Positions 3,145 to 57,965 of a stretch of 64,000 nucleotides of DNA are shown here, piece by piece. Both the position numbers and the translations under genes were made by a program. Origin of the DNA: an uncultured Vicinamibacterales bacterium (GTDB lineage Bacteria; Acidobacteriota; Vicinamibacteria; Vicinamibacterales; JAKQTR01). The first letter of the stretch is position 1; each line of letters opens with the position of its first letter. The notes under the pieces were generated by a model. The model searched no databases. It was not told where the DNA came from and saw only the letters and a list, made by a program, of their open reading frames with translations. Where the stretch lies: assembly GCA_964396055.1 (NCBI GenBank), contig CAYNDV010000004.1, positions 9,284 to 73,283 of the forward strand. Reading direction: 5' to 3'.

Positions 3145-3345
3145 GGCGATGTTCGATCCCTGGCGGCATGTCCGGCCGGCTGGTGTCGGATGACCGACAC
3201 ACCCTCCGTGGACAGGCGCCCTGGCTTGACGGCCTGTGCGTGCGATTCGAAGCCGCCCGCGTCCGCGCGGGCGCGCTGCCATGGTGGGTCTGCACAAAGA
3301 GTTCCATATCCGGCGTCGCTCCCGGCGCGGCCGCGGCGGATGGCG

Positions 3346-3361
3346 TGGCGTTCACTTTGCA
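3346..3361 (+). promoter_or_regulatory. Candidate sigma54 (-24/-12) promoter upstream of maf
   Basis: TGGCGT-TCACT-TTGCA, with GG at 3347-3348 and GC at 3359-3360 (GG-N10-GC spacing and a perfect TTGCA -12 element). It lies in the 383-nt divergent intergenic region. The implied 5' UTR to the GTG at 3528 is ~155 nt. Confidence 0.4.
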
Positions 3362-3527
3362 GCGTGAACCCGCATCCGGCTGTCCGCCGCCTGCCGCCGG
3401 CGGGCCTGGCAGACGGAAGTTCTTGTTCTTGCAGCCACTTGCGCACATGTGCGCGGCTGGCGGGCCTGTATCCGGTGTGGCCGGGTGTCGGGGCGCCGGT
3501 CGGCTCGTGCGTCAACCAGGAGACGAC

Positions 3528-6113: not shown

Positions 6114-6137
6114 ACGTTCCCCGGCCTGCGGGGCGCT

Positions 6138-9671: not shown

Positions 9672-9755
9672 GAGACTCTCCTCCTGCCGCCATCCTGGCG
9701 GCGATCGTTCCTCCGTCAGGCCGGCTCAGCGCCCGGCGTGACGGCGCTCTTCACT

Positions 9756-13504: not shown

Positions 13505-13507
13505 GAG

Positions 13508-14155
13508 TCAGCAGGCCTCCCGGGTGCGCAGGTCGAGTTGATCGAGTTCCACCAGGTCGCTCACCCGCACGAGGGCCGCTCCGGCGGGGACGACGCGCCG
13601 GAGCGCCGCGAGCACCTCATCGTCGGATCGCACGGCGCGGTGGTGGAGCGCGGTCACGACGTTGGTCGATTCGAAGAGGACGAGCGACCCGCGAACGGCC
13701 TCCGGGATGAGCCCGTCGAGCCCGGTGTCGACCGGCACGTACGTGCCGGCATCGCGCCACCCCGAACCTGCGGGGCAGCGGATGGGCCACGGCTCATCGG
13801 CGGGCCCGCGCTGTACGCCGTACACGCCCAGGCCCGCTGCCCACGCGCCCGCCACCAGCGACGCGTCGGGCAGCGTGTCGGCGAGCAGGTAGAGCGGCAA
13901 CTGGTGCCGGTTCACGGCCGGGTCGCAGAGCACGTCCAGGACCTGGCCGAGCACGGGAGTGCCCGGGCCGATGCGGACCAGGCTCGGCACGCCGCGACGG
14001 TACGCCCGCCGCAGGGCGCCGAGGGTGTCGGGGCCGTCGAACTTGTCCCACAAGCCGCGCCAGGCGACGGCCGGGAGCGCCAGGGCATCTGGCCGGCACG
14101 CGTCCCGCGGCGTGGAACCCCGGTGGAGAGCCGTTGCAAACAACACCGCGCCCAT
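13508..14155 (-). CDS. Hypothetical protein (215 aa), translationally coupled within the glycosylation operon
   Basis: Track ORF 13508..14761 trimmed to MGAVLFATALHRGSTPRD. The ATG at 14155 forms an ATGA overlap with the WavE stop, and there is a 3-nt gap to the next gene. No family recognised. Confidence 0.5.
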   Translation of the reverse strand: MGAVLFATALHRGSTPRDACRPDALALPAVAWRGLWDKFDGPDTLGALRRAYRRGVPSLVRIGPGTPVLGQVLDVLCDPAVNRHQLPLYLLADTLPDASLVAGAWAAGLGVYGVQRGPADEPWPIRCPAGSGWRDAGTYVPVDTGLDGLIPEAVRGSLVLFESTNVVTALHHRAVRSDDEVLAALRRVVPAGAALVRVSDLVELDQLDLRTREAC

Positions 14156-15450
14156 CAGTGGATCCTCCCCGTAAGGGTCCGCAGCGACGTGCGGTCCGGG
14201 TCGCAGTCGTCGTCCACGCCCGGCAGGGGACCGGCCTCGAGCTGGTCCCAGAAGGCGGGTGTGACGAGTTGGCGGGGGCCGGTGCGGAGGCTCAGGTCGG
14301 GAATCGCCAGGTTCTTCAGCCAGATCAGGTCGAACCAGTCGTGGCCGACCACGGCGAAGTGATCGCGGTAGAACGCCCAACTGTCGGCCAGCGTGCCGTC
14401 GACGGGCCGGCCGATGGTCCGGTTGAACTGCAGACCGAAGTACGACTCGGCCGGATGGCCGTCGAGACAGACGTCGGTGAGGGGACGATCGGCGCGGTCG
14501 GGAGACAGCAGCGCCCCTTCGCGCTCGTCGAGGGCGGCCGACCAGTACTGCTCCAGGTCGCCGGCGTGGCCCAGCATCACCAGGTCGGACGGGTGGTAGA
14601 GCAGGAAGCGGCGCGTATAGGCGCTGGGGACGATCAGGCGATCCTGGAGCCCCCGGCAGCGGGCCGCCCTCGCGTCGAAGCGTGCCAGATGCCGGCGGGC
14701 GCGATCGAACACCCCGGGGTCCAGCACGGCGAGATCGGTGCGTGTCTTGAGCACCAGGCAAGCGCCGCGTTCGACGGCCCTGCGGATGCCGGCGCGCGTG
14801 GACACGATCTGCCGGTTGCGGTTCTGGATGCCGTCGCGATCCGGCGGCGTACTGAGCACCACCTCGTCCACCGCCGGTCGCACCGCGTCGAGCAACCCGG
14901 GATCCGTGCCGGCCCAGGTGGACAGCACGATCGTGTCGTGCGGGTGCAGGGCCGACAGCGCCCGCAGGACGCGGGGCGTCTCATCGGCGAAAACCGGGCC
15001 CTGGACGACGATCGCGTCGGTTGACGAGGGCGCGCGGGTGGCCGATCGGGCGGCCAGGGCATCGAGGCCGGCCAGTTGCGCCCGCACGGACGCGTCGGCG
15101 AACACGGCGCTGGCGGGCAGGGCCGGCGCGCCGCACAGCGCGGCCACCTGGTCCCGGATCTCCGGCCAGGCCGACGAATAGACGACCACGACCGTCGTAC
15201 CCCGCGGCTCGGCGGCGAGCCGCTCCGGCGGCGCGATCTCGATGCCGCGGCAGCGCCGGCCCCAGCGCGACCGGTCGTTGTCGACCACATAGTCGAGCCG
15301 GACGGGATACAGGCTGTGGAAGTAGTCGAACACGCTCCCCGTTCCCCAGCCCACGAGGGTCGTGGACCGCGCCGACACCAGCCGCGAGACGGCGTCGAGC
15401 GCCTCACGATCGATGCGTCCGGAACCCGGGGCAGGCGACGCGTGCATCAC
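14155..15450 (-). CDS. WavE-family polysaccharide biosynthesis protein with an N-terminal Rossmann-like module
   Basis: IVVQGPVFADETPRVLRALSALHPHDTIVLSTWAGTD...IQNRNRQIVSTRAGIRRAVERGACLVLKTRTDL resembles the WavE lipopolysaccharide-synthesis family. The N-terminus is LVGWGTGSVFDYFHSLYPVRLDYVVDNDRSRWGRRCRGIEI. The start could be GTG 15450 or ATG 15447. Confidence 0.65.
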   Translation of the reverse strand: MMHASPAPGSGRIDREALDAVSRLVSARSTTLVGWGTGSVFDYFHSLYPVRLDYVVDNDRSRWGRRCRGIEIAPPERLAAEPRGTTVVVVYSSAWPEIRDQVAALCGAPALPASAVFADASVRAQLAGLDALAARSATRAPSSTDAIVVQGPVFADETPRVLRALSALHPHDTIVLSTWAGTDPGLLDAVRPAVDEVVLSTPPDRDGIQNRNRQIVSTRAGIRRAVERGACLVLKTRTDLAVLDPGVFDRARRHLARFDARAARCRGLQDRLIVPSAYTRRFLLYHPSDLVMLGHAGDLEQYWSAALDEREGALLSPDRADRPLTDVCLDGHPAESYFGLQFNRTIGRPVDGTLADSWAFYRDHFAVVGHDWFDLIWLKNLAIPDLSLRTGPRQLVTPAFWDQLEAGPLPGVDDDCDPDRTSLRTLTGRIH

Positions 15451-15453
15451 GCC

Positions 15454-16203
15454 TCAGGCCACCGCCCGCAGCGACACGGGGTTGGAGAGGAACAACTGGA
15501 GATCGGACGGGATCCCGAGGCCGTGCATGCCGGCGCCCTCGCGGCCCACGTTGAAGACGGCGATGCGTGCGCCCTCACCGATCAGTTCGTTGTACACGGG
15601 CGCCACGTAGAACTCGTTGTTCACCCGCAGGTTCTTCGCAATCATCCGATCGGCGGCCCGCACGAAGTCGGCGCCGCGGCGGAAGTTGTAGATGCCCACC
15701 GTGGCTTCGCGCGAGATGACCTGCTTCTCGACCACGCGCGTGACACGACCCTCGCCATCGAACCCGACAAACGACCACTTGGGATCGTCAGCCGCCATCG
15801 TCATGATCAGGCCGTCGGCCTGCTGCCGGTCCATGGTGGCCAGGTAGTCGTCGATGTCGAGGTCGACCCACTGATCGCTGTTGGCCAGCATCAGGGCGTC
15901 GCCGTTGTCGATGAGCGTCCGCGCGAGCAGGACGGTGCAGGCCGCGCCCTCCGTCACGCCGTCGACGGGCACCACGGCGCATCCGGGCGCCACGCGCTCG
16001 AGGGTGCGCTGCATGCCGAAACGCTCGAGGTGTTCGCGCAGGGCGACGAAGACGAAACGGTGGGCCTGGCGGGGCCGCACGTTCTGGACGACCACCTCGA
16101 TCATGGGGCGGCCGTGCACGGGAATCAGGGGCTTGGGCAGATCGTAGCCCGCGGTGGCGAAGCGGCTTCCGCGGCCGGCGATGGGCAGGACGATGTTCAG
16201 CAT
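15454..16203 (-). CDS. Sugar-phosphate nucleotidyltransferase (GT-A/NTP_transferase fold), paralogue 1
   Basis: MLNIVLPIAGRGSRFATAGYDLPKPLIPVHGRPMIE carries the G-x-G-x-R nucleotide-binding signature. The C-terminal region FYVAPVYNELI is shared with the adjacent paralogue. Confidence 0.75.
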   Translation of the reverse strand: MLNIVLPIAGRGSRFATAGYDLPKPLIPVHGRPMIEVVVQNVRPRQAHRFVFVALREHLERFGMQRTLERVAPGCAVVPVDGVTEGAACTVLLARTLIDNGDALMLANSDQWVDLDIDDYLATMDRQQADGLIMTMAADDPKWSFVGFDGEGRVTRVVEKQVISREATVGIYNFRRGADFVRAADRMIAKNLRVNNEFYVAPVYNELIGEGARIAVFNVGREGAGMHGLGIPSDLQLFLSNPVSLRAVA

Positions 16204-16212
16204 GGTGACCGT

Positions 16213-16947: not shown

Positions 16948-17603
16948 GCCGCCACCTTGATCCCTTCCACCGGCGCCGCCAGGCGGGCCCGTTCGATGGC
17001 GGCCCGCAGGCGGAAGTAATGCACGTCGCCGAATCCCGGCACCTGGCAGACATGGGCGCCCGACCGGCGGGCCGCTTCCACGCCGTGAGGCGCGTCCTCC
17101 ACGATGAGCGTCTCGGCGGGCGTGACGCCCATGCGCGCCATGGCCGCCAGGTAGATCTCCGGGTCCGGCTTCGGCCGGCTCACGTCTTCGTTGCTGGTGA
17201 GGAACTCGAAGTACTCGTCGAGGCCCGACTGGTGAATCATCAACTGCACGCTGTCGCGCACCGCGTTGGAGCACACCGCCATGCGGTAGCCCTCCTGGCG
17301 CAGGCGGCTCAGCATGTACTCCTTCTCGAAGACGGGCCGGCACTGCCGCAGGACTTCTTCGCGGGTGTAGACCTGCTTGAGTCGGTTCACCATGCCGTGA
17401 ATCGCCGAGGGCAGGCCCTTCTCGACCGTCAGCATCTCCAGCTTCTTGCGGGTTGGGAGGCCGTTGTAGGTGGACAGGTGCTCGTAGCGGGTGATCTCGA
17501 AGCCGAACAGCCGGAGCGCCCGGTTGAGCGCGTCGTAGTGCCACTCGGTGGCGTCCACGAGCACGCCGTCGAGGTCGAACAGCACACAGCTGATGTGATT
17601 CAC
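16944..17603 (-). CDS. HAD-superfamily phosphatase (beta-phosphoglucomutase-like subfamily)
   Basis: VLFDLDGVLVDA is HAD motif I (DxDG), AVCSN is motif II, and KPDPEIY...VEDAPHGVEAA covers motifs III/IV. GTG start at 17603 with a GAGGAG SD 7 nt upstream. Confidence 0.8.
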   Translation of the reverse strand: MNHISCVLFDLDGVLVDATEWHYDALNRALRLFGFEITRYEHLSTYNGLPTRKKLEMLTVEKGLPSAIHGMVNRLKQVYTREEVLRQCRPVFEKEYMLSRLRQEGYRMAVCSNAVRDSVQLMIHQSGLDEYFEFLTSNEDVSRPKPDPEIYLAAMARMGVTPAETLIVEDAPHGVEAARRSGAHVCQVPGFGDVHYFRLRAAIERARLAAPVEGIKVAA

Positions 17604-17614
17604 GATGGTGCTCC

Positions 17615-17953
17615 TCAGGCGGTGACACCCGGGCCGGCCGGGTACTTGTCTCCGATCACGCTCGGCATCTTGACGACGACCGTGGCCGCCTCGGTCAGTG
17701 CCTCGAAGTCGGTTGGTTCGCCCGGCGCGAGCAGGACGATGTCGCCCGCGGTCAGGGTCTCGCCGTTCATCCGGACCGTGCCGGCGGCAATCAGGGTCAG
17801 TTCGGTCGCCACCCGGTGGACGTGGGCGGCCTCGGCCGCGCCAGCCGCATACCGCTTGTACGCGACCTCACAGGCCGACGTCCGGATGCACGACGGCTCG
17901 AAATCGCCGACCATCCAGCCGCCAACCATGTCGGTCAACCGACACCGTGTCAT
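17615..17953 (-). CDS. Cupin-domain protein, first gene of the long minus-strand glycosylation operon
   Basis: Track ORF 17615..17989 trimmed to MTRCRLTDMVGGW (ATG at 17953, GAGGAG SD). The cupin-like core is AHVHRVATELTLIAAGTVRMNGETLTAGDIVLLAPG. Confidence 0.6.
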   Translation of the reverse strand: MTRCRLTDMVGGWMVGDFEPSCIRTSACEVAYKRYAAGAAEAAHVHRVATELTLIAAGTVRMNGETLTAGDIVLLAPGEPTDFEALTEAATVVVKMPSVIGDKYPAGPGVTA

Positions 17954-18034
17954 CGTCGCGCTCCTCGGCAACCGGGGCGAATGGCCCATTCAGGGCCGGG
18001 ACCGCGGGCCCGTGCCGGGTCCCAGGGGGCTGGC

Positions 18035-18050
18035 TGCAAATCCGGATCCA
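18035..18050 (-). promoter_or_regulatory. Candidate sigma54 (-24/-12) promoter for the cupin...sulfotransferase operon
   Basis: The minus strand reads TGGATC-CGGAT-TTGCA, with exact GG-N10-GC spacing and a perfect TTGCA. It is ~70-80 nt upstream of the cupin ATG and immediately downstream, in the minus-strand sense, of the AT-rich palindrome pair. Confidence 0.45.
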
Positions 18051-18054
18051 GCCG

Positions 18055-18118
18055 CATAAACCAATCCCGGATTGATTGATGCGCCCCGGTGAATAAATCA
18101 ATCCGGGATTGATTTGCC
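18055..18118. repeat. Pair of AT-rich ~29-bp palindromic units (locus A); the same unit as at 41044-41110
   Basis: A1 is GCATAAACCAATCCCGGATTGATTGATGC. A2 is ATAAATCAATCC-G-GGATTGATTT, a perfect 10+1+10 dyad centred at 18105. The consensus is GCATAAATCAAYCC(S)GGRTTGATTTATGC. A2 overlaps the last codons and stop (KSIPD*) of the GDPD gene. Confidence 0.85.
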
Positions 18119-18784
18119 GGCGAGTGTCGCGGCCAGTGCTGCGGGATAGTCGGTGCAGATGCCGTGGATGCCCCAGGCCAGGGCCTGGCTCCAGCGGGCC
18201 CTGGACTCGGCCAGGGACCGGCCGTGCAGGTCGGGTGAGACGAGGTGAACCAGGCGCCCGGCCCCTGTCAGCCGCTCGACATCCTCCCGTGCGGCCCATG
18301 GACCGTCGAACTCGTCGAGCCAGATGACGGAGGCCTCCGGGATGGACAGCGCCCGCTCGATGGGCTCTCCACGATCGCTGACCCGGGCCGCGAGCTGAAT
18401 CCGGGGGTGGGCCTCCCTGAACAACCGGGCGGCGCGACCAGGCTCGTCTTCCAGCAGTTCCATGTCGAACAGGAAGACCTGGCCGCTGATGCCCTCTCGG
18501 TCCAGCCAGGACACCAGTTCGGCTTCGTATCCGAGCTCCTTCACGTTGAGTGCGATGAGCGCGTCGGGATACCGACGCACCTCGGCGCAGAACGCGCCGG
18601 CGTCGAGACCGTCGCCGGGCGGCTGCGGATCGTGGGACAGATAGAAACGGCCGTCCGCGTGGCGGCGGATGTCGGTTTCGAGTCCCCAGCCAGATCCGAG
18701 CGCTTCCCGGATGGCGGGGAGGGTGTTTTCCGTGGTCCGGTCGGCGCCGGCAACATTGGCCCGGTGAGCGAGGATGCGGATCAC
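18098..18784 (-). CDS. Glycerophosphodiester phosphodiesterase (GDPD) family protein
   Basis: Track ORF 18098..19315 trimmed to the GTG at 18784 (VIRILAHRANVAGADRTTENTLPAIREALGSGWGLETDIRRHADGRFYLSHD). The HR...ENT...E-x-D pattern is typical of GDPD. The start is uncertain. Confidence 0.65.
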   Translation of the reverse strand: MIRILAHRANVAGADRTTENTLPAIREALGSGWGLETDIRRHADGRFYLSHDPQPPGDGLDAGAFCAEVRRYPDALIALNVKELGYEAELVSWLDREGISGQVFLFDMELLEDEPGRAARLFREAHPRIQLAARVSDRGEPIERALSIPEASVIWLDEFDGPWAAREDVERLTGAGRLVHLVSPDLHGRSLAESRARWSQALAWGIHGICTDYPAALAATLAGKSIPD

Positions 18785-23547: not shown

Positions 23548-23550
23548 GTG

Positions 23551-23573
23551 AAAAAGGGGCCTGGCCCCTTTTT
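23551..23573. terminator. Bidirectional intrinsic terminator between convergent zwf and ppk2
   Basis: AAAAAGGGGCC-T-GGCCCCTTTTT is a perfect GC stem flanked by an A-tract and a T-tract. It sits 4 nt after the zwf stop and touches the ppk2 stop. Confidence 0.8.
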
Positions 23574-24475
23574 CATTCGGCCAGGAGCAGGCGCCGGGCG
23601 GCCCCGAGTTCTTTCTGCTGCGCCGGCGTCACCACCGGGTAGGCCAGGTCCAGCGATCCGAGCGCGTCGACCGCCGCGGCCGCGACAATCGTGCGCGTGA
23701 ACCACTTGTTGTCGGCCGGCACCACGTACCAGGGCGCTTCCTCGGAGGCGGTGGCGCGGATCATGTCCTCGTAGGCCCGCATGTAGTCCTTCCAGAACCC
23801 CCGCTCGCGGGCGTCGGCCGACGAGAACTTCCAGTTCTTCTCGGGCCGGTCCAGGCGTTCGAGGAACCGGCGCTTCTGCTCGCGTCGTGAGACGTGCAGG
23901 AAGAACTTGCGGATCAGCACGCCGTTGCGGCTGAGATACCGCTCGAAGCTCCGGATGTCCTCGTAGCGCTCGCGCCAGATCCGGCCCGACACGAGGTCCG
24001 GCGGCAGTTTCTGCTTCGCCAGAATCTCCGGGTGCACGCGCACCACGAGTACCTCTTCGTAGTACGACCGATTGAAGATGCCGATCCTGCCGCGCTCGGG
24101 CAGGTGGCGCTGACAGCGCCAGAGGAAATCGTGATCCAGTTCCTCGGCCGACGGGGCCTTGAAGGCCGCGACCTGACATCCCTGCGGGTTGACGCCCGAC
24201 ATGACGTGCTTGATGGCGCCGTCCTTGCCGGCGGCGTCCATCGCCTGGAAGATGAACAGCACCGCCCAGCGGTCCTGGGCGTACAGCATGTCCTGCAGGG
24301 CGGCGAGGGCGTCGATGCCCGTGGTCAGGGCTTCCTTCGCCCGCTCCTTGTCCTCCTGCTTGAGGTTGCCGGTGTCCGAGGGGCTGATGTCGTCCAGCCG
24401 GAACTTCCGGCCATTCGAGATGCGGTACGGGCGCGACAGCTCGCGGGCGGCCTTGACGACGTTCTTCAGTTTCAT
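23573..24475 (-). CDS. ppk2: Polyphosphate kinase 2 (PPK2) family protein
   Basis: FQAMDAAGKDGAIKHV is a Walker-A-like motif. IFNRSYYEEVLVVRVH and RERYEDIRSFERYLSRNGVLIRKFFLHVSRREQKRRFLERL are also present. The start is set at MKLKNVVKAAR (ATG 24475); the track start at 24502 is possible. Confidence 0.85.
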   Translation of the reverse strand: MKLKNVVKAARELSRPYRISNGRKFRLDDISPSDTGNLKQEDKERAKEALTTGIDALAALQDMLYAQDRWAVLFIFQAMDAAGKDGAIKHVMSGVNPQGCQVAAFKAPSAEELDHDFLWRCQRHLPERGRIGIFNRSYYEEVLVVRVHPEILAKQKLPPDLVSGRIWRERYEDIRSFERYLSRNGVLIRKFFLHVSRREQKRRFLERLDRPEKNWKFSSADARERGFWKDYMRAYEDMIRATASEEAPWYVVPADNKWFTRTIVAAAAVDALGSLDLAYPVVTPAQQKELGAARRLLLAE

Positions 24476-27930: not shown

Positions 27931-28671
27931 GTGACCGACCATGCTGAGGCGCCCGTCACCGTGGCCTTCTCGCCTGATGACCTGGTCCGGATGAACCGCT
28001 GGGCCCTGGCGGCCAGCGTCGTGCGCGGGACGGTTCATTCCGTGAACAACATCCTCCAGACCATCGGCGGCCAGGCGGAGATGCTGCTGCAGCAGCCCGA
28101 CGAACCCGACGGCGTGCGCAGACGCATGGACCGGGTCGTGGCGCAGACGGCCCGCGCCGCCACCTACATGCGCGAACTCTCGGCCGTCGTGCGGGACGCC
28201 CCCGCCGCGCCGGACCGCTGCGATGTCAGGCCCGCCGTGGATCGCGTCTACGCGCTGCGGGAGTACGACCTGGCGCGGGAGCGGATTGCGTTCGAGGTGC
28301 ATGCGGGCGGCGAACCCCTGCCGGCAGTGCCCATCGACCAGCCCGCCCTGTGCACCGTGCTGCTGAACCTGATCCTCAACGCCGAACAGGCGCTGGCCGG
28401 CGCGCCGGACGCCCGGATCGCGGTGCTGCTGGAGCGGAGGGGTGACGCCGTGGTGATCGGCGTGCAGGACAACGGCCCGGGCGTGCCCGCCGGCGACCGG
28501 GACCGGGTGTTCGAGCCGTTCGTCACCACCGGCCGGCCGGGGGCGACGCTCGGCCTGGGGCTGGCTGTCTCGCGGCGCCTGGCGCAGGCGCACGGAGGAC
28601 GGCTCGTCCTCGCGGACGGGCCGGACGCCGCCGGCGCACGCGTCGAGTTGATCCTGCCCGTCTCAGGCTGA
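27931..28671 (+). CDS. Cytoplasmic histidine kinase lacking a recognisable sensor domain (HisKA + HATPase_c only)
   Basis: The H-box is GTVHSVNNILQTIGGQAEML, the N-box is LLNLILNAEQA, G1 is VQDNGPGVP and G2 is GLGLAVS. 246 aa. The 3' end overlaps the convergent sigma54-activator gene by 9 nt. Confidence 0.75.
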   Translation: MTDHAEAPVTVAFSPDDLVRMNRWALAASVVRGTVHSVNNILQTIGGQAEMLLQQPDEPDGVRRRMDRVVAQTARAATYMRELSAVVRDAPAAPDRCDVRPAVDRVYALREYDLARERIAFEVHAGGEPLPAVPIDQPALCTVLLNLILNAEQALAGAPDARIAVLLERRGDAVVIGVQDNGPGVPAGDRDRVFEPFVTTGRPGATLGLGLAVSRRLAQAHGGRLVLADGPDAAGARVELILPVSG

Positions 28672-30069
28672 CATCGTCTGGGTGTCCTGGACGCCCAGCC
28701 GGTTCAGCTTGTCGATGAACGTCGTCCGGCTCAGGTTCAGCAGGCGCGCGGCCTGCCGCTTGTTGCCGCCCGTCTTCTCCAGGCATCGCAGGATGAGGTC
28801 GCGCTCGAGCTGCGACACCACCGACGCGAAGTCGAGCCCGTCGTCCGGGATCGTGACGGGGTTCACTGCCGCCGGCTCGCTGGTGCTGCGGATGTCGTCG
28901 GGCAGCGAGCGCGGCGTGATCTCGCGATCGGCGCCCGACATCGCCACGGAGTGCTCGACGGCGTTCTCGAGCTGGCGGATGTTGCCCGGCCAGGGCGCGG
29001 CCATGAGCTGCCGGATCGTGTCCTGCGACAGGGTCTTGCAGGGGAGGTTGTTGCTGCGGCACGACTTCTGGACGAAGTGGCGCGCCAGCAGCGGGATGTC
29101 CTCGACGCGGTCGCGCAGGGGCGGCAGCGTGATGGGAATCACGTTGAGGCGGTAGTACAAGTCCTCACGGAACTGGCCTTCCTTCACGAGCTTGCGCAGA
29201 TCCGTGTTGGTTGCGGCGATGATGCGGGCGTCGAACTTGACCGGCCGGGAATCGCCGACGCGCTCGATCTCGCGTTCCTGCAGGGCCCGCAGCAGCTTCG
29301 ACTGGAGCGGCAGCGGCATCAGCCCCACTTCATCGATGAAGAGGGTGCCCCGATGGGCGAGCTCGAAGCGGCCGATGCGGGGTGCCACGGCGCCGGTGAA
29401 CGCGCCCTTGGTGTGCCCGAACAGCTCGGCCTCCGCCAGTTGCTCAGGAATCGCGGCGGAGTTGAACGCCACGAACCGGTGCTCGGCCCGCTGGCTGATG
29501 TTGTGGATGGTGCGCGCCACCAGTTCCTTGCCGGTGCCGGTCTCGCCGTGGATCAGGACCGTGCTGTTCATCGGGCTGATCGCATCCAGCGTGGCGAACA
29601 CTTGACGCATGGCCGGGCTCTGGCCGATGATGCCCGACATCCGGCTGTAGTCGTTGAGTTGGGCCCGCAGTTCGGCGTTCTCGCGCTGCAGTTGACGGCG
29701 CTCGAACGCGGCCCGCAGCACCCGGGAGACCTGCGACAGCTGGAACGGCTTGCAGAGGAAGTCGATCGCGCCCTCTTTCATGGCGGTCACGGCTTCGGCC
29801 ACGCCCCCGAACCCCGTGATGACGATGGCGATCAGGTCGGGATACCGCTCGACCGCCGCCCGGAGGATGTCGAGGCCGTCCGCGTCGGGCAGACGCAGGT
29901 CCACGACGCACGCGTCGAACGCGAACGCCGATACGTGTTCGAGTGCCTCGCGGCCGGTCGCGGCCAGCGTGGGGCGGAACCCGTCGGCGGCCAGCGACTC
30001 GCCGAGCAGTTCGCGGAAGTCGGTTTCGTCTTCGATGACGAGGACGGTGGGCTCCTGGTTCAGTGCCAT
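28663..30069 (-). CDS. Sigma54-dependent response regulator (NtrC/FleR/FlrC class: REC + AAA+ + HTH)
   Basis: Trimmed to MALNQEPTVLVIEDE (ATG 30069, GAAGGA SD). Walker A is HGETGTGKE, the sigma54-contact loop is GAFTGA, and the arginine-finger region is RFREDLYYRL. The C-terminal Fis-type HTH is GNKRQAARLLNLSRTTFIDKL. Confidence 0.9.
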   Translation of the reverse strand: MALNQEPTVLVIEDETDFRELLGESLAADGFRPTLAATGREALEHVSAFAFDACVVDLRLPDADGLDILRAAVERYPDLIAIVITGFGGVAEAVTAMKEGAIDFLCKPFQLSQVSRVLRAAFERRQLQRENAELRAQLNDYSRMSGIIGQSPAMRQVFATLDAISPMNSTVLIHGETGTGKELVARTIHNISQRAEHRFVAFNSAAIPEQLAEAELFGHTKGAFTGAVAPRIGRFELAHRGTLFIDEVGLMPLPLQSKLLRALQEREIERVGDSRPVKFDARIIAATNTDLRKLVKEGQFREDLYYRLNVIPITLPPLRDRVEDIPLLARHFVQKSCRSNNLPCKTLSQDTIRQLMAAPWPGNIRQLENAVEHSVAMSGADREITPRSLPDDIRSTSEPAAVNPVTIPDDGLDFASVVSQLERDLILRCLEKTGGNKRQAARLLNLSRTTFIDKLNRLGVQDTQTMSA

Positions 30070-30227
30070 ACGATCCTTCGATGCGAGGAAGAAGGTGACC
30101 GCGTGTCGGGCTGGCTCAGTCGACCCTGGCTGAACCGTCCCGGTGAACCGCCCCAGGTTCATGAAATCGACATCGGTGTCGATTAGTCGTCATGGGGTGG
30201 TCCGGCCAACGTCAGATCGCAACGTCC

Positions 30228-30785
30228 ATGCCACAGACACACGACTTGCCCTCCACCACTGAAGTCCTGGTGGTCGACGATGACCCGGACATCCGGGAAC
30301 TGCTCGTCGAGCACCTCAGGAGCCGGGGATTCCGGGTCGCCGCCGCTGCCGACGGGCGGGCTGCCATCGCAGCCGTGGAGCGGTCTCCCGGCCATTTCGG
30401 TCTGATTCTCACCGACCTGCAGCTGCCGGGCGCCGACGGCCTCGCCGTGTTGAGGGCCGCTAAACTCCTGAATCCACGGTGTCATGTCGTGATCATCACG
30501 GGCTACGCGTCGCTCGACAGCGCCATCGAGGCCGTCCGGTCCGGGGCGTACGACTATCTGACCAAGCCGTTCTCTCTGGGTCAGCTCGACGTCATCATCA
30601 GCCGCATCCGCGACCGTCAGGCCCTCGAGTTGGAAAACCGACAGTTGGCCAGGCAGGTCGGGGATCGGGACCCGGGACCGGCACTCACCGTTCCCGCCAG
30701 GCTCGAGGCGATCGAAGGGCGGCTCGACCGTATCGAGAAGCTTTTGCAGGACTTAGCTGGTCCGAGGCGCCGCCACACCGACTAG
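30228..30785 (+). CDS. Response-regulator receiver protein with a C-terminal coiled-coil tail and no output domain
   Basis: [15 protein letters not shown]...[17 protein letters not shown]...[29 protein letters not shown], followed by the helical [11 protein letters not shown]...[19 protein letters not shown]. The start is ATG 30228, or 30192 as in the track. Confidence 0.7.
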   Translation: [185 protein letters not shown]

Positions 30786-30806: not shown

Positions 30807-30836
30807 CGGTTTTCTGTCTAGTCAGACGGAAAACCG
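30807..30836. promoter_or_regulatory. 30-nt hairpin/palindrome (13-bp stem, 4-nt loop): either a terminator of the REC gene or an upstream activator site for the flgB promoter
   Basis: In CGGTTTTCTGTCT-AGTC-AGACGGAAAACCG all 13 pairs are Watson-Crick or G-U. There is no flanking T-tract. It is centred ~110 bp upstream of the -24 GG of the flgB sigma54 promoter. Confidence 0.5.
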
Positions 30837-30929
30837 ACAGGCCGTGCTCGACAAGCCGATAGCTCGCACAGCAGTCAGGTCTGACCACCACAGGCGATCT
30901 CTCCCTCCCCCGCGAGGCTCCAGATCTCG

Positions 30930-30945
30930 GGGCACTGTTCTTGCA
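30930..30945 (+). promoter_or_regulatory. Sigma54 (-24/-12) promoter of the flgB operon
   Basis: GGGCAC-TGTTC-TTGCA, with GG at 30931-30932 and GC at 30943-30944. This is a near-perfect match to TGGCAC-N5-TTGCA, ~65 nt upstream of the flgB start and its GGGAGG SD. Confidence 0.7.
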
Positions 30946-39051: not shown

Positions 39052-41046
39052 GTGGACGCCGCCCTGTTCCCTCCGTTCGTGACCGCCGCCGGCCAGCCGG
39101 CCGGCGACGGCACCGCGGCCGCCGCCCCGCCCGGGCCGGCCGGCGAGTTGTTCGGGGCGGCGCTCGCCACCGCCCTGGAACGCCCGTCCGCAGCCCCGGC
39201 GGCGCCTGGGGCCACCCCGACCGAGCGGAGCGGCGGAGCCGTCCCGCTTCCGGTGCCCGGACGCCCGGCCGACGATCCGGCGTCAGCACCTGTCCTGTGG
39301 TTTAACCCCGTGGCCTGCGCCCTGGTCTGGCAGCCCGACGCGGCGAGGCCTCCGGCCTCCCTCGACCTGGGCGCCGTCACCAGTCCGTTGGCCGATCCAC
39401 TCGAGGACCAGACCGTCGCCGGAGACGAGCAGACCGAGCCGCCGAGCCCCTTCAGTTGCGCGCACCCCGGTGTGCCCGGAGACCCGACGGCGCTGCCCGG
39501 ATCTGTCGATGTGATTCCCCTCGACACGTCGGGCCGTGAACCAGGCTCGACCGACGAGCCGCCGCCCGACCATGGGGCCGGCGCGCGCGACCGCGAGGAA
39601 GATGCCCCGCCGGCACCGCGGATCGGGCTGCCCGAAACCGCGAGGCCTGATGGCCTTCCGGTCCTGCCTGTCGCAGTGCCCGGCACCATGGGCATCGAGC
39701 CGGTCCGGGTGGACCGACAGCCGGTTCCAGCCGGTGACCCCGCGGCACACCTCGCCGCGCCGGCCGGGTCTGGCGCGTCGAGGCGCGACACAGACTCCGC
39801 CGCGCGAACACCTGCGGCGGGCGACCTGCCGACCTCTGGTGCGTTGGCGGCCGGCGTGGTGCCGGCAACCCAGGGACGCGACCATCTCGGCCCGGCGCAG
39901 GAAGCAGCCGGGCCCGCGTGGGAACCGCAGGGGATCGAGGCGGAGCCCCCCCTGCGGGCGCCTTTGCCGGGGGCCAGGCTCGCCGACGCGCCGGCCCCCC
40001 ATGCCCACGACGTCCGCGCCCGCGAATCCAATGTCGATGTGAACCTACCGACCCGGGAAGCCGAGTCGGGGCGCCGGCCGCTGACCGTCGAAGAACTGGT
40101 CCGCGCGGCCCTGCGCGGAGCCGCGGTCGAGACCGCCCGGCCGGAGCGGATTCCCCTGGGCGCGCCGCTGCCCGCGAATCTGAACGCCACGCTCCAGACC
40201 GATGCCGCCAGGGACCTGTTCGCCTCGGCGACGGCTCTGCGCGAGACCCTGCTCCGGCAGGCCGCCGACCGGCCCGTTCCCGCGGCGGCGGCCGAACCCG
40301 CCGCGTTCGGGACCACCAGGGCCAGGCCGGCGCCCTCGTCCGGACAACAGGCTGACGCGTCCGGGGAGCCGCCAGCGGCCGACCCCCTGCCGGCCAGGCC
40401 CGTGCGCGACGGGGCATGGACCCCGGCAGATAACGAGACCGCGGGTCTCTCTGGCCGGACAGCCGCACCCTCCACCGGCCAGGACGGCGGGGCGCGGTCG
40501 GGCTCCGGTGAGCCTCAGCCACGGCCGAGGCCGCAGACGCACACGTCGGTATCAGCCGACGCGGCCGTGTATGCCGCCGGGACCCGGATGAGCGGCGCGG
40601 AACTGGCCAGCCGTGTGAGCGAACTGGCCCAGCGCCCGGCGGTGGCAACCCCGGCGCCCCCACCGCAGGAACCGACGGCCAACGGCGAACCCCTGAGCCA
40701 CGCGGTGGTCCGGTCGCTCAAGTTCCAGTGGGCGCAGGGCGGGGGCGAGGCCCGGCTGCAGTTGCGGCCGGAGTACCTCGGGGACCTGAGCGTGTCCCTG
40801 CGCGTGAGCGGCGCGTCGGTGACGGCGATTCTGTCGGCCGAGTCAGCCTCCGTCCGCGCGTGGATCGACACGCACCAGTCCGACCTCCGCCGTGCCCTCG
40901 AAGCCCAGGGCCTGAGCCTGGACAGCCTCATCATCGACCCTGACGGCCACCCGCAGGAACGCCAGGAGTCGCCCGGCCGGCAGGAGCACCGCGCACCCCA
41001 CCGCCGCCGCCACCCCGACGCCGGCCGGTTCGAGGCGCTGCTGTAA
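39052..41046 (+). CDS. fliK: Flagellar hook-length control protein FliK
   Basis: A long P/A-rich ruler region is followed by a C-terminal Flg_hook-like domain: EARLQLRPEYLGDLSVSLRVSGASVTAILSAESASVRAWIDTHQSDLRRALEAQGLSLDSLII. Position is after flgE. Confidence 0.8.
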   Translation: MDAALFPPFVTAAGQPAGDGTAAAAPPGPAGELFGAALATALERPSAAPAAPGATPTERSGGAVPLPVPGRPADDPASAPVLWFNPVACALVWQPDAARPPASLDLGAVTSPLADPLEDQTVAGDEQTEPPSPFSCAHPGVPGDPTALPGSVDVIPLDTSGREPGSTDEPPPDHGAGARDREEDAPPAPRIGLPETARPDGLPVLPVAVPGTMGIEPVRVDRQPVPAGDPAAHLAAPAGSGASRRDTDSAARTPAAGDLPTSGALAAGVVPATQGRDHLGPAQEAAGPAWEPQGIEAEPPLRAPLPGARLADAPAPHAHDVRARESNVDVNLPTREAESGRRPLTVEELVRAALRGAAVETARPERIPLGAPLPANLNATLQTDAARDLFASATALRETLLRQAADRPVPAAAAEPAAFGTTRARPAPSSGQQADASGEPPAADPLPARPVRDGAWTPADNETAGLSGRTAAPSTGQDGGARSGSGEPQPRPRPQTHTSVSADAAVYAAGTRMSGAELASRVSELAQRPAVATPAPPPQEPTANGEPLSHAVVRSLKFQWAQGGGEARLQLRPEYLGDLSVSLRVSGASVTAILSAESASVRAWIDTHQSDLRRALEAQGLSLDSLIIDPDGHPQERQESPGRQEHRAPHRRRHPDAGRFEALL

Positions 41047-41110
41047 ATCAACCCCGGGTTGATTTATGCACTGGAGATGCAGGGTGCATAAATCAACCCG
41101 GGATTGGTAC
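41044..41110. repeat. Pair of AT-rich ~29-bp palindromic units (locus B) that together form a 67-nt super-palindrome; the same unit as at 18055-18118
   Basis: B1 is TAAATCAACCC-C-GGGTTGATTTA, a perfect 11+1+11 dyad that contains the fliK TAA stop, followed by TGCAC. The spacer is TGGAGATGCAGG. B2 is GTGCATAAATCAACCCGGGATTGGTA. GATTTATGCAC and GTGCATAAATC are exact reverse complements of each other. Confidence 0.85.
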
Positions 41111-41210
41111 GTGTCGGTCTACCGTCACCTGGTCCGGCCCGGCGGCCGGCCCAGGGTCGGCTTCCATTCCTGAAGATCCATCCAGTCAGCTACTTGCAGC
41201 CTGGCGTGGG

Positions 41211-41226
41211 CGGCATCCTCCTTGCC
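41211..41226 (+). promoter_or_regulatory. Candidate sigma54 (-24/-12) promoter of the fliL...fliN operon
   Basis: CGGCAT-CCTCC-TTGCC, with GG at 41212-41213 and GC at 41224-41225 (GG-N10-GC). It is ~50 nt upstream of the fliL ATG and ~112 bp downstream of the centre of palindrome B2. Confidence 0.55.
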
Positions 41227-41277
41227 TAACACCCTTGCGGACGCACATGACGTGCGCCCCGAGGGTGATTCCGAAAC

Positions 41278-41793
41278 ATGGCCAAAGAGACTCCGGAGAC
41301 GCCGGCGCCCCTGCCCGGGAAGAACAAGTCGAGCAAGAAGGGCCTCATCATCGGCCTGGCCGTGGCGATGGTCGCCGCCGCCGCCGGCGGCGGGGCGGCG
41401 TACTGGAAATGGGGCATGGCCGCCGCCAGCGCGGCTGCGCCGGCCGCCCACGCGGCGCCGGTTCCCGCCGTCGTCGAGGAACCCGGCATGGTGCCGTTCG
41501 AGCCGTTCCTGGTCAACCTCGCCGATGAGGGCGGGCAGTCGTACCTGCGGGTGACGCTGAACCTGCTGGTGGCCAGCGAAGAAGAGGCGAAAACGCTCGA
41601 AGGCAAGCCCGTCGTGCGCACCATGATGCGCTCGGCCGTGCTCGAAGTGCTCTCGACCCAGACGGCCGCCCAGCTCGTCACGCCGGAAGGCAAGGCGGAA
41701 CTCAAGAAGGCGATTGCCGCCAAGATCGACTCCCTCAAGCTTCATGTCCGGGTGCACGATGTCCTCTTCTCCGACTTCGTCGTTCAGCAGTGA
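41278..41793 (+). CDS. fliL: Flagellar basal-body-associated protein FliL
   Basis: An N-terminal TM helix is followed by VPFEPFLVNLADEGGQSYLRVTLNLLVASEEEAKTLEGKPVVRTMMRSAVLEVLS...VHDVLFSDFVVQQ, the FliL family pattern. Confidence 0.88.
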   Translation: MAKETPETPAPLPGKNKSSKKGLIIGLAVAMVAAAAGGGAAYWKWGMAAASAAAPAAHAAPVPAVVEEPGMVPFEPFLVNLADEGGQSYLRVTLNLLVASEEEAKTLEGKPVVRTMMRSAVLEVLSTQTAAQLVTPEGKAELKKAIAAKIDSLKLHVRVHDVLFSDFVVQQ

Positions 41794-57035: not shown

Positions 57036-57965
57036 GTGGATGCCGTGTCGGTGGACCGACTCCTCGCCTCGCCAGTGTCGATTTCCGGACCATCGCAGGT
57101 CGGCCGGGACCGCGAGGGACTGGAGCAACTGCGCGGCGAAGAACTGGCCCGGGAGTTCGAATCGATGCTGCTCCTGCAGATGCTCAGGCAGATGCGGCAG
57201 TCGATCCGGGACGGGTCCGAGGGCGAAGAGGGCCTGTCGGCCGACACGATGCTCGACACGGTAGATGCCGAACTGGCGCGCCAGCTCAGTCAGGCGGGAG
57301 GCCTGGGCCTGGCCGACATGATGGCCAAGGCGATCCGGACGCAGGCCGAGGCGAGGAACGCTGCAGCCAGCGGCCCTGTGTCGGCACCGGCTTCATCGTC
57401 TCAAATGACTGTGGAACAGGCATTTAGCCATGGTCACACAGCCGTAGCCAGGACCACCGTTCCCCTGGCTGGCCAGGCGGAGACCGGCGTCGAGGCGACC
57501 AAGGTGACGTCTGAGTTCGGCTGGCGTAACGACCCCTTCACCGGGGCCCTTCGTTACCACCGGGGCATCGACTTCAAGGCCGCGTATGGCGAGGGCGTGC
57601 CCGCTGCCGGCGACGGCCGTGTCGTGGAGGCGGCCGACAACGGCGCCTACGGCCTCACCGTAGTGGTGGAACACACAAACGGGATGAAGACCCGCTACGC
57701 GCACCTGTCGGCGATGGGGGTTGGCGTGGGGGATCGGGTCTTGCAGGGACAGGAGATCGGGCGCGTCGGTCAGTCCGGACGCGCGACGGGGCCGCACCTG
57801 CACTTCGAGGTCATTCAGGATGGGCGGCGCGTCGACCCCTCGATGGTCGTCGCGCTTCGAGGTTCGGGACTGGGCGGGTTAAAGTTGGCAGGCACGGCTG
57901 CCGATTTCCCCACTGGCGGGCGTACGTCCGCGCCTGCCATTTCAGGAGTCGACGATGAAGATTGA
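57036..57965 (+). CDS. flgJ: FlgJ-like protein: rod-binding domain fused to an M23 (LytM) peptidase instead of a muramidase
   Basis: The rod-binding motif is LAREFESMLLLQMLRQMRQS. The M23 motifs are YHRGIDF (HxxxD) and GPHLHFEV (HxH). The start is GTG 57036 or GTG 57045. Confidence 0.8.
   Translation: MDAVSVDRLLASPVSISGPSQVGRDREGLEQLRGEELAREFESMLLLQMLRQMRQSIRDGSEGEEGLSADTMLDTVDAELARQLSQAGGLGLADMMAKAIRTQAEARNAAASGPVSAPASSSQMTVEQAFSHGHTAVARTTVPLAGQAETGVEATKVTSEFGWRNDPFTGALRYHRGIDFKAAYGEGVPAAGDGRVVEAADNGAYGLTVVVEHTNGMKTRYAHLSAMGVGVGDRVLQGQEIGRVGQSGRATGPHLHFEVIQDGRRVDPSMVVALRGSGLGGLKLAGTAADFPTGGRTSAPAISGVDDED
57880..57907 (+). promoter_or_regulatory. Candidate sigma28 promoter for flgM, internal to the flgJ 3' end
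   Basis: TAAAGTTG-N12-GCCGATTT, against the consensus TAAAGTTT-N11-GCCGATAA; the spacer is one nt long. It lies ~48 nt upstream of the flgM ATG. Confidence 0.45.

Follow-up and report, generated by a model that had tools for sequence, protein, structure and literature searches.

Directly after the fliK stop codon, the fliK-fliL spacer of this uncultured Vicinamibacterales bacterium carries two AT-rich dyads that together form one long inverted repeat. We propose, with about even confidence for and against, that this unit (locus B) is a REP-like extragenic palindrome doublet that folds, as RNA, into a stable hairpin where the fliK transcript ends. We infer that the element is transcribed and that the hairpin acts there. 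As a kind of element, locus B is familiar and fairly ordinary.

Anatomy of locus B and its twin

Coordinates refer to the window, which is the whole 64-kb stretch of DNA analyzed. The features on which the argument turns are the following.

18057-18116, - strand: locus A, where the doublet occurs a second time (motif scan and alignment)
39052-41046, + strand: fliK, hook-length control protein (Pfam Flg_hook, E = 2e-14)
41044-41046, + strand: fliK TAA stop codon, which is also the first three bases of B1
41044-41066, + strand: B1, a 23-nt AT-armed dyad centred on CCCCGGG, with 10/10 self-pairs
41047-41072, + strand: B1 with TGCAC, forming the 5′ arm of the long hairpin (RNAfold of 41044-41110 and of 41035-41125)
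41073-41082, + strand: loop of the long hairpin, different in sequence in the sister lineage
41083-41108, + strand: GTGCA with the greater part of B2, forming the 3′ arm of the long hairpin (RNAfold)
41089-41110, + strand: B2, a dyad copy that has degenerated, having 6/10 self-pairs and three mismatches to the motif
41112-41127, no strand assigned: GC-rich dyad TGTCGGTCTACCGTCA of the form TGT-N10-ACA, centred at about -117 from the fliL transcription start
41211-41226, + strand: sigma-54-type -24/-12 promoter, CGGCAT-CCTCC-TTGCC (GG-N10-GC, with GG at 41212-13 and GC at 41224-25)
41278-41793, + strand: fliL (Pfam FliL), with its ATG at 41278

The preliminary description correctly recognized B1 as a perfect dyad opening with the fliK TAA (TAAATCAACCC-C-GGGTTGATTTA, all ten self-complementary pairs formed) and the segment as a long inverted repeat, in which B1 plus TGCAC (41067-41071) faces GTGCA (41084-41088) plus B2 across a gap of 12 nt. 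It further held that the segment could fold either as one long hairpin or as two short ones. The long form stands, as does B1 alone (-11.4 kcal/mol), but B2 alone folds at -4.2 kcal/mol with z = 0.66, i.e. no better than shuffles. B2 is mainly the complement of B1 and a poor dyad by itself. The whole unit reaches -43.5 kcal/mol (z = -5.6), and its + strand, fliK-sense stem-loop joins 41047-41072 to 41083-41108 through about 25 pairs at about -40 kcal/mol.

Within the 64-kb window, the motif AAATCAAYCCNGGRTTGATTT is found with up to three mismatches only at 18058, 18095, 41045, and 41090, and it has no match in 100 dinucleotide-preserving shuffles of that window. Apart from the overlap with the stop codon, the 23-nt dyads are extragenic, as are the palindromes of 20-40 nt that define REP sequences; the FliK C-terminus (...EALL-stop) is kept in all orthologs. 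Because two independent Logan assemblies, SRR12133403 (L001) and SRR12133404 (L002), carry an identical spacer, locus B is not an assembly artefact. A search of Rfam returned no match at the gathering threshold and, at E ≤ 1, only meaningless microRNA-precursor hairpins.

The twin unit that had been reported in front of a glycosylation operon is confirmed at locus A. In the minus-strand reading, a GDPD-like gene ends before it and a cupin-HAD-nucleotidyltransferase sugar operon comes after it; the unit folds at -36.9 kcal/mol. It aligns better to locus B as the minus strand, so that both copies have the same orientation relative to local transcription. The sibling MAG L080 has the unit at the same place; in L082 the unit is absent from this position and the flanking genes overlap by 4 nt.

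The fliL control region and the AT-rich insertion

The sigma-54-type promoter previously assigned to fliL is real, being conserved in every orthologous fliK-fliL spacer examined: GGCA(C/T)-N5-TTGC lies about 50 nt before the fliL ATG in 7/7 lineages compared (L003-L010, L078, L079). The gene that it serves is the first of an operon fliL-fliN-fliO-fliP-fliQ-fliR-flhB-flhA (Pfam; gene calls on L001). Along with the promoter, all orthologous spacers keep the GC-rich dyad as TGTCGG-N4-CCG(A/T)CA, and exact copies of this dyad occur at 3184 and 17929. Its TGT-N10-ACA form is that of a NifA-type upstream activator sequence (UAS) for sigma-54 activators. The window encodes a sigma-54 activator with a Fis-type HTH at 28663-30189, and holds further sigma-54 promoters at 30931 (+), for flgB, and at 30219 (-), for the activator gene itself. 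The GC-rich dyad is separate from the AT-rich element and, judged by its conservation, is a better candidate for the activator site than the AT-rich pair.

The AT-rich unit itself corresponds to an insertion of about 45-50 nt, present only in the lineage of the window and its closest sister (L003-L005; FliL 83% identical). Five more distant lineages (L006-L010, L078, and L079) do not have it; their spacers still show the fliK stop, the TGTCGG dyad, the sigma-54 promoter, and a 5′-UTR stem. By this comparison, the unit would be a recent arrival in the fliK-fliL spacer, placed outside the conserved fliL control region.

Seven arm substitutions distinguish the window from L004, and their pattern bears on what has been preserved since the insertion. 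When they are placed on the window sequence, the sense strand folds at -43.7 kcal/mol, against -40.2 kcal/mol for the window itself, while the antisense strand falls to -29.9 kcal/mol. Random sets of six transitions and one transversion give -25.4 ± 5.6 kcal/mol (P = 0.0007); with other nulls the preservation of the hairpin has P = 0.011 (type-matched) and P = 0.0013 (strand-symmetrised), all for one lineage pair and these seven substitutions. We used substitution simulations in place of covariation counting because counts on three sequences are uninformative, shuffles equalling the observed value. Pairing is kept by one double change, A-U to G-C, and by two that produce G.U; at columns 9-60, a fourth gains a U.G pair where there was a C-A mismatch. 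Meanwhile the dyads lose symmetry, with B1 self-pairs dropping from 10 in the window to 8 in L004 and 6 in L003, and the motif scores from 42 to 39.5 for B1 (27 in L003) and from 33 to 22.5 for B2 in the sister. In L003, a TT to GG change breaks two pairs. These comparisons suggest that selection keeps the sense-strand long stem-loop at locus B (P about 0.001-0.01) while the individual dyads weaken.

Other copies of the dyad and competing explanations

Metagenome contigs of about 70% GC and one Acidobacteriota genome also contain this AT-rich dyad, at loci that are unrelated and non-flagellar. Dyad pairs precede an SDR gene and an aminotransferase gene in L075, and lie between genes for a Gfo/Idh/MocA oxidoreductase and an LD-carboxypeptidase in L076 and L077. 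The Acidobacteriota genome (L066) has the dyad as a single copy; across an 8-kb region of unrelated housekeeping genes, most of its intergenic gaps also contain variants (five related dyads), and one such gap lies between convergent genes. L086 is orthologous to the L077 locus (84% identity, same synteny), yet the palindromes in its spacer, AAATGGGGTC-T-GACCCCATTT, differ in sequence and agree in architecture, with TGGGGTC-T-GACCCCA dyads in place of CAATCC-S-GGATTG; the same orthologous spacer in L083-L085 has no palindromes. Species-specific replacement of this kind is typical of REP elements and therefore speaks for the REP-like reading. Counting against it, the dyads of L075 and L077 sit in divergent promoter regions beside TACAAT-like boxes, positions at which a role at an RNA 3′ end makes no sense.

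The preliminary description had named a widespread REP element as the finding that would undo its proposal. In kind this is largely what emerged, the palindromes being dispersed and species-specific. As to copies, the 64-kb window has two loci, about 80 kb of sequence from close relatives has none, and a metagenome scan for the doublet yielded three contigs representing two loci. The single dyad AATCAAYCCSGGRTTGRTT has at least 64 matches in a contig scan, apparently chance hits to coding sequence in genomes that are not GC-rich, save L066. By eye, the same string can be read as the peptide I-N-P-G-L-I. A full-text literature search for the dyad strings returned no paper.

Alternatively, though this is unlikely, the dyads could be operators of a dimeric DNA-binding regulator other than a sigma-54 activator, strong at B1 and A2 and weak at B2 and A1, that either supplies a lineage-specific input to fliL and the sugar operons or acts as a roadblock between operons. 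A 21-bp sequence conserved across loci and organisms would suit such a protein, given that the spacers are unrelated and the spacing varies among 37, 43, 45, and 47 bp, and so would the independent variation of the Y and R positions, of which all four combinations are found. Regulators typically have AT-rich sites when the genome is GC-rich, and in L075 the proximal dyad is centred at about -33 of a TACAAT box before an apparently leaderless gene, with three variant dyads at a 30-bp period before TACAAT at a second locus. Against an operator, the flanking genes have no common function, no regulator gene adjoins any site among the called genes scanned, the full-text search found the dyad sequence in no paper, and sites fill most gaps in L066, even one between convergent genes. 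Conservation at orthologous promoters with symmetry kept, as expected of an operator, gives a mixed and mostly negative picture. The orthologous locus in L086 holds a different palindrome, and at locus B the sister has lost dyad symmetry but kept the pairing between the dyads; at locus A, however, the dyads are 23/23 and 21/23 identical to those of L080 and the spacer between them is wholly diverged, as a protein-binding site would show, which also counts against the REP-like reading.

We consider it decidedly unlikely that the unit is a selfish or decaying repeat remnant without host function, whose hairpin is kept for copying of the element or through homogenisation by gene conversion. Such a remnant would account for the lineage-specific insertion, for a B2 that is already degenerate and sister copies that have decayed further, for the disruptive TT to GG change in L003, and for the different repeat families in the same spacer of related species. 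It sits poorly with the substitutions at one orthologous copy, which keep the sense stem better than 99% of random alternatives, and with the persistence of the element, which both loci already had when the sibling MAGs split off.

The doublet was also compared with several established elements and binding sites, each of which we rejected. A MITE is contradicted by the want of a convincing target-site duplication or clean terminal inverted repeats, TA flanking B (in one reading) and not A. By eye, the TTR part of an IHF site (WATCAANNNNTTR) fails, the half-sites of an FNR/CRP site are everted, and the spacing or core does not fit Hin hix, integron attC, or Xer dif. There are no solo half-sites, as a DNA uptake sequence would have, and only the outer AAATC...GATTT is shared with the Bacillus Zur box.

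That the stem and its T-rich tail might end the flgB-fliK transcript was also part of the preliminary description. It is indeed plausible that the unit acts where the fliK transcript ends; the classical form of a terminator is absent, and we regard an intrinsic (Rho-independent) terminator of the flgB-fliK operon as very improbable. The stable stem right after the stop, the A-rich 5′ flank, and the T-rich 3′ arm do recall one, and the shape resembles the clear bidirectional hairpin and U-tract terminator elsewhere in the window (23550-23574, GAAAAAGGGGCC-T-GGCCCCTTTTTC). However, neither the short nor the long stem leads into a U-tract, a consensus scan of 40700-41500 and 17500-18400 detected no stem-loop with a U-tract, and identical stems stand at unrelated loci, including divergent promoter regions.

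Hardly tenable, finally, is the proposal that B1 and B2 are upstream activator sequences for a bEBP driving the fliL sigma-54 promoter: their centres, 157 and 112 bp upstream of the GG at 41212, do fall in the 80-200 bp enhancer range, a Fis-type sigma-54 activator is encoded within the window, and TGCAC-N12-GTGCA between the dyads is retained in the sister, but below about 83% FliL identity (L006-L010, L078, L079) the dyads are missing although the promoter is kept, it is the neighbouring TGT-N10-ACA dyad that is conserved with the promoter instead, no AT-rich dyad precedes 30931 (+) or 30219 (-) in a motif scan of the window, the centres lie at about -44/-81 from the sole sigma-54-like site at A as against about -137/-182 at B, and elsewhere the dyad precedes unrelated genes in whose spacers no sigma-54 promoter is seen by eye.

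Proposed role and relation to known systems

On the REP-like reading, the flgB-fliK transcript would run into the element and fold as a hairpin directly after the stop codon. The hairpin could set the end of the upstream mRNA or shield it from 3′ exonucleases, and it could damp read-through, so that the fliL operon would depend on its own sigma-54 promoter and on the TGT-N10-ACA site beside it. Since the stem starts 0-4 nt past the stop codon, a terminating ribosome would have to melt it, which could reduce the amount of FliK made as well. Ribosomes reportedly stall at REPs that lie near stop codons, a finding attributed to Liang, Rudd and Deutscher (Mol Cell 2015). A bolder version, which we think quite improbable, would make the AT-armed, CCSGG-centred, GTAG-less palindromes an undescribed class of Vicinamibacterales type with a dedicated protein. 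They would serve as portable operon-boundary modules that split ancestral operons (GDPD/cupin at A, fliK/fliL at B) when they, and with them a new sigma-54(-like) promoter, are inserted directly behind a stop codon, the stop-abutting hairpin tuning the upstream output, here that of the hook-length ruler FliK.

For annotation, the analysis tells a conserved sigma-54 control region (the TGT-N10-ACA dyad plus the -24/-12 promoter) apart from an adjoining recent repeat insertion. For the mapping of flagellar regulation in Acidobacteria, the dyad to test is the GC-rich one and not the eye-catching AT-rich palindromes. The AT-armed repeat family appears to be undescribed, and it could be of use both in marking the lineage and as a natural example of a stop-codon hairpin.

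Among known systems, the NifA-type UAS of sigma-54 activators resembles the AT-rich pair in promoter distance and dyad symmetry, but the dyad conserved with the promoter at locus B is the GC-rich one at 41112-41127. Intrinsic and bidirectional terminators, such as that at 23550-23574, likewise present an A-rich flank, a stem, and a T-rich flank at a gene end; the stem of locus B differs in being AT-rich, in having no free U-tract, and in recurring in sequence at many loci. The tandem operators of dimeric repressors (tetO1/tetO2) are likewise paired dyads of about 21 bp, each with one central base; they stand a few turns of the helix apart, sometimes in divergent promoter regions. They differ from the present dyads, which have no adjacent regulator gene, are not conserved at orthologous promoters, and lose their symmetry at locus B while the complementarity between them is kept.

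The comparison with the REP, BIME, and REPIN sequences of Enterobacteria and Pseudomonas has two sides. A GTAG or CGTC tag marks most REPs (PMC3733652), and neither is present at any copy in the window, L004, L080, L075, or L077. The arms at locus B are AT-rich round a CCSGG centre, which is unusual in a 71% GC genome, and a central gap of 1 nt makes each unit a near-perfect dyad and not a stem-loop. REPs typically number tens to hundreds of copies in a genome; here the number looks low in the DNA covered (2 loci in 64 kb). REPINs go with a cognate RAYT (Y1 transposase) gene, which the repeats often flank; the scanned ORFs of the 64-kb window include no transposase domain. In the literature searched, Acidobacteriota have no REP family of this sequence. 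On the other side, REPs are likewise extragenic palindromes of about 23 nt, often right after a stop codon, that occur in several copies at unrelated loci, and they are species-specific repeats whose positions are reused, as in L077 and L086. REPINs are described as REP doublets forming long hairpins (PMC3116915, PMC3337134), and at both A and B two inverted units round a variable loop do the same. The likeness may extend to function: REP sequences at 3′ ends stabilise the upstream mRNA (Newbury et al. 1987, as cited in PMC7509114), and the hairpin of locus B, at the end of fliK, could protect its transcript in the same way.

Anatomy of locus B and its gene neighbourhood

The window (71% G+C) is, judging by the names on FliL, HAD and oxidoreductase homologs, a flagellar supercluster of a Vicinamibacterales-like acidobacterium with the following features.

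Features of the window and of the fliK-fliL spacer
Left part: sugar/glycosylation island (Maf-like, glycosyltransferase, radical SAM, WavE, nucleotidyltransferase and HAD genes)
28663-30189, middle of the window: response-regulator-type sigma-54 activator
Right part: flgB through fliK, then fliL-fliN-fliO-fliP-fliQ-fliR-flhB-flhA-flhF-flhG
Right part, after flhG: fliM and rod, ring and hook-associated genes
39052-41046 (+): fliK (Pfam Flg_hook), with its TAA stop at 41044-41046
41044-41066: B1, perfect dyad TAAATCAACCC-C-GGGTTGATTTA, opened by the fliK TAA
41067-41071 and 41084-41088: TGCAC and GTGCA, 12 nt apart
41089-41110: B2, directly 3' of GTGCA
41211-41226: CGGCAT-CCTCC-TTGCC, sigma-54-type promoter upstream of fliL
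41278: fliL ATG

These spacer features are exactly as the preliminary description had them, and the fliK-fliL spacer is identical in two independent assemblies. With at most three mismatches, the dyad motif occurs at four sites in the 64-kb window (18058, 18095, 41045 and 41090); it is absent from 100 shuffles of the window, which itself contains no solo half-sites. Of the two short hairpins originally envisaged, B1 stands as a perfect dyad, but B2 self-pairs at only 6/10 positions and, alone, folds no better than shuffles. B2 being in essence B1's complement, the unit proper is the long inverted repeat, which folds at -43.5 kcal/mol (z = -5.6).

Elsewhere in the window, the large putative flagellin-glycosylation island (3129-16212) adjoins the flagellar genes and comprises a Maf/MptE-like protein, a glycosyltransferase ORF of ~1195 aa, a radical SAM enzyme, WavE and a nucleotidyltransferase. 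No Pfam match was obtained for several long ORFs there (2209-3351, 11570-13507). A FlgJ-like protein (57036-57965) combines a rod-binding domain with Peptidase_M23, where enterobacterial FlgJ has a glucosaminidase domain.

The conserved control region of fliL

Orthologous fliK-fliL spacers were aligned from lineages whose FliL is 83, 66, 64, 63, 63 and 62% identical to that of the window. All share GGCA(C/T)-N5-TTGC ~50 nt before the fliL ATG, which bears out the proposed sigma-54 promoter. All likewise carry a GC-rich dyad, TGTCGG-N4-CCG(A/T)CA, ~90 nt upstream of the -24 element (TGTCGG-N4-CCGACA at 41112-41127 in the window, centre ~-117), whose TGT-N10-ACA form is that of the NifA-type upstream activator sequence. 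The AT-rich unit, by contrast, is confined to the window and its closest sister lineage; in the alignment it shows up as ~45-50 nt of extra sequence inserted after the stop codon and before this dyad. As promoter and GC-rich dyad are common to all spacers and the AT-rich unit is not, the enhancer of fliL would be the GC-rich dyad, and the role of activator-bound enhancer first assigned to B1/B2 is disfavoured.

The flagellar sigma-54 activator probably binds at the GC-rich dyad. Exact copies lie at the start of the Maf-like gene (3184-3199) and of the cupin-like gene near locus A (17929-17944); the second of these doubles as coding sequence for CRLTD and has been retained in L082, a relative discussed below. 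Partial sites occur at 30628-30643 and 30824-30839, and related half-sites precede the sigma-54 promoter of flgB by ~100 nt (30824 vs 30931). That promoter, GGCACTGTTCTTGC at 30931-30944 (+), falls inside the long ORF called there, and the true flgB start is therefore probably further downstream. Another sigma-54-type promoter, GGCATGGACGTTGC at 30219-30232 (-), precedes the activator gene and suggests its autoregulation; a palindrome, AAATCGACA-TCGG-TGTCGATTA at 30164-30185, occupies the short divergent stretch that separates the activator gene from a response-regulator gene and carries TGTCGA half-sites resembling the TGTCGG dyad. Finally, all aligned spacers share a short stem where the fliL 5' UTR is predicted to begin; in the window it is CGCAC-ATGAC-GTGCG (41242-41256), in relatives CGCGC...GCGCG, a covarying A-U to G-C pair, and it may act as a 5' stabilising stem-loop.

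Locus A and related dyads

The twin unit is borne out at locus A. There, on the minus strand, it follows the end of a GDPD-like gene and precedes a small cupin-like gene, the first of a HAD-nucleotidyltransferase-WavE operon. It aligns best to locus B when read on that strand, so that both copies have the same orientation relative to local transcription. The doublet also stands at this position in L080, a sibling MAG (HAD 96% identical). L082 (HAD 87% identical; 20 kb of a 1.5-Mb contig covered) has no spacer here, since its GDPD-like gene shares 4 nt with the cupin-like gene (9600-9680; window 17868-18097). An ancestral operon thus appears to have been split in the window's lineage by a ~200-nt insertion comprising the doublet and a sigma-54-like site, TGGATC-CGGAT-TTGCA (GG-N10-GC; 18035-18050, minus strand), 8 nt after dyad A1. 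This site is kept in the sibling contigs L080 and L081 and may be a new promoter of the cupin-HAD-nucleotidyltransferase sugar operon.

A metagenome scan for the doublet pattern gave three contigs representing two loci, all of ~70% G+C. In L075, two near-perfect dyads 43 bp apart separate a Tat-signal aminotransferase-like gene from an SDR gene. L076 and L077 have a half-site and two dyads spaced by 47 bp, flanked by genes for a Tat-signal Gfo/Idh/MocA oxidoreductase and an LD-carboxypeptidase. The inter-dyad spacers are unrelated. Among the matches listed in a genome scan, one 71% G+C Acidobacteriota contig (L066) has a perfect single dyad; the others look like chance matches. A position weight matrix built from the dyad sites was used to find variant dyads. 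L066 has four more in 8 kb, occupying most intergenic gaps, one of them between convergent genes; the surrounding genes have no common function. No such palindrome occurs in ~80 kb of sequence from lineages nearer to the window. The related high-GC contigs L066, L075, L076 and L086 carry other A/T-flanked palindrome families, and some of these sit immediately before TACAAT-like boxes in divergent promoter regions.

Variant palindrome families
L066 2830-2854, 4111-4135, 5151-5175, 5802-5826: CAGTCC-S-GGACTG
L075 9951-10035: ACTCC-C-GGAGT, three tandem variants with a 30-bp period
L086 3861-3926: TGGGGTC-T-GACCCCA
L076 133-157: GGTGCC-W-GGCACC

Nature and proposed role of the element

The observation on locus B is confirmed and its earlier interpretation partly supported. 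A classical terminator is unlikely, since no U-tract follows the stem; the form that a terminator takes in this genome would be that of the perfect palindrome GAAAAAGGGGCC-T-GGCCCCTTTTTC (23550-23574, -28 kcal/mol), exactly between the convergent G6PD and PPK2 genes and a textbook bidirectional intrinsic terminator.

The main rival is that the dyads are sites of a sequence-specific DNA-binding protein. We retain it because the dyads keep their sequence from one organism to another, with unconstrained spacers and variable spacing (at locus A, the window and L080 have almost the same two dyads but a completely different 14-nt spacer), the L075 and L077 sites lie in divergent promoter regions near TACAAT-like boxes, the copy number looks low, and the element lacks the GTAG or CGTC tag of most REPs. 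Furthermore, the Y and R positions of the dyad do not covary. However, in L086 (84% identical, same gene pair as L077) the spacer shows the same architecture, two dyads and a half-site, in a different sequence (AAATGGGGTC-T-GACCCCATTT), and the orthologous spacers of L083-L085 have no dyads. Because the binding site of a regulator should remain at its promoter, this replacement speaks for a repeat. In the enterobacterial literature, REPs are classically species-specific in sequence, with different palindromes reusing one and the same intergenic position.

The same reading is favoured at locus B, where dyad symmetry is eroded in the sister while the long + strand hairpin is kept. Seven arm substitutions separate the window from its sister; B1 self-pairs fall from 10 to 8 (L004) or 6 (L003), and the motif scores of B1 and B2 from 42 and 33 to 39.5 (27 in L003) and 22.5. 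Placed on the window sequence, the sister substitutions give a + strand hairpin of -43.7 vs -40.2 for the window, whereas the antisense strand drops to -29.9; random sets with the same transition/transversion numbers give -25.4 +/- 5.6 (P = 0.0007). Hairpin retention gave P = 0.011 with substitution types fixed and P = 0.0013 with the strand also randomised. Among the arm changes are a double change from A-U to G-C, two that lead to G.U and a C-A mismatch turned into U.G. That G.U is tolerated on one strand points to a fliK-sense RNA or, possibly, to single-stranded DNA. The sequence evidence thus speaks for a repeat-type hairpin, and the REP nature that the preliminary description had set against its own reading is largely borne out in kind. 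REPs are themselves bound by proteins, so the two readings are not exclusive.

We propose that the flgB-fliK transcript would run into the element and fold as a ~25-pair hairpin that starts right behind the stop codon. If it acts as REP hairpins do (Newbury et al. 1987, cited in PMC7509114), it would block 3' exonucleases and damp read-through, so that fliL would rely on its own sigma-54 promoter. A stem abutting the stop codon might in addition delay termination and lower FliK, an idea based on reported effects of REPs situated no more than 15 nt from stop codons. At locus B the hairpin always begins within a few nucleotides of the stop, but the exact overlap is not fixed, given that the sister stop is TGA vs TAA in the window and that in L080 the stop lies 32 nt before the locus A element.

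The kind of element is familiar. A family with AT-rich arms, a CCSGG centre and no GTAG tag appears not to have been described before in Acidobacteriota, and it differs by its lack of a tag from most REPs, which are marked by GTAG or CGTC.
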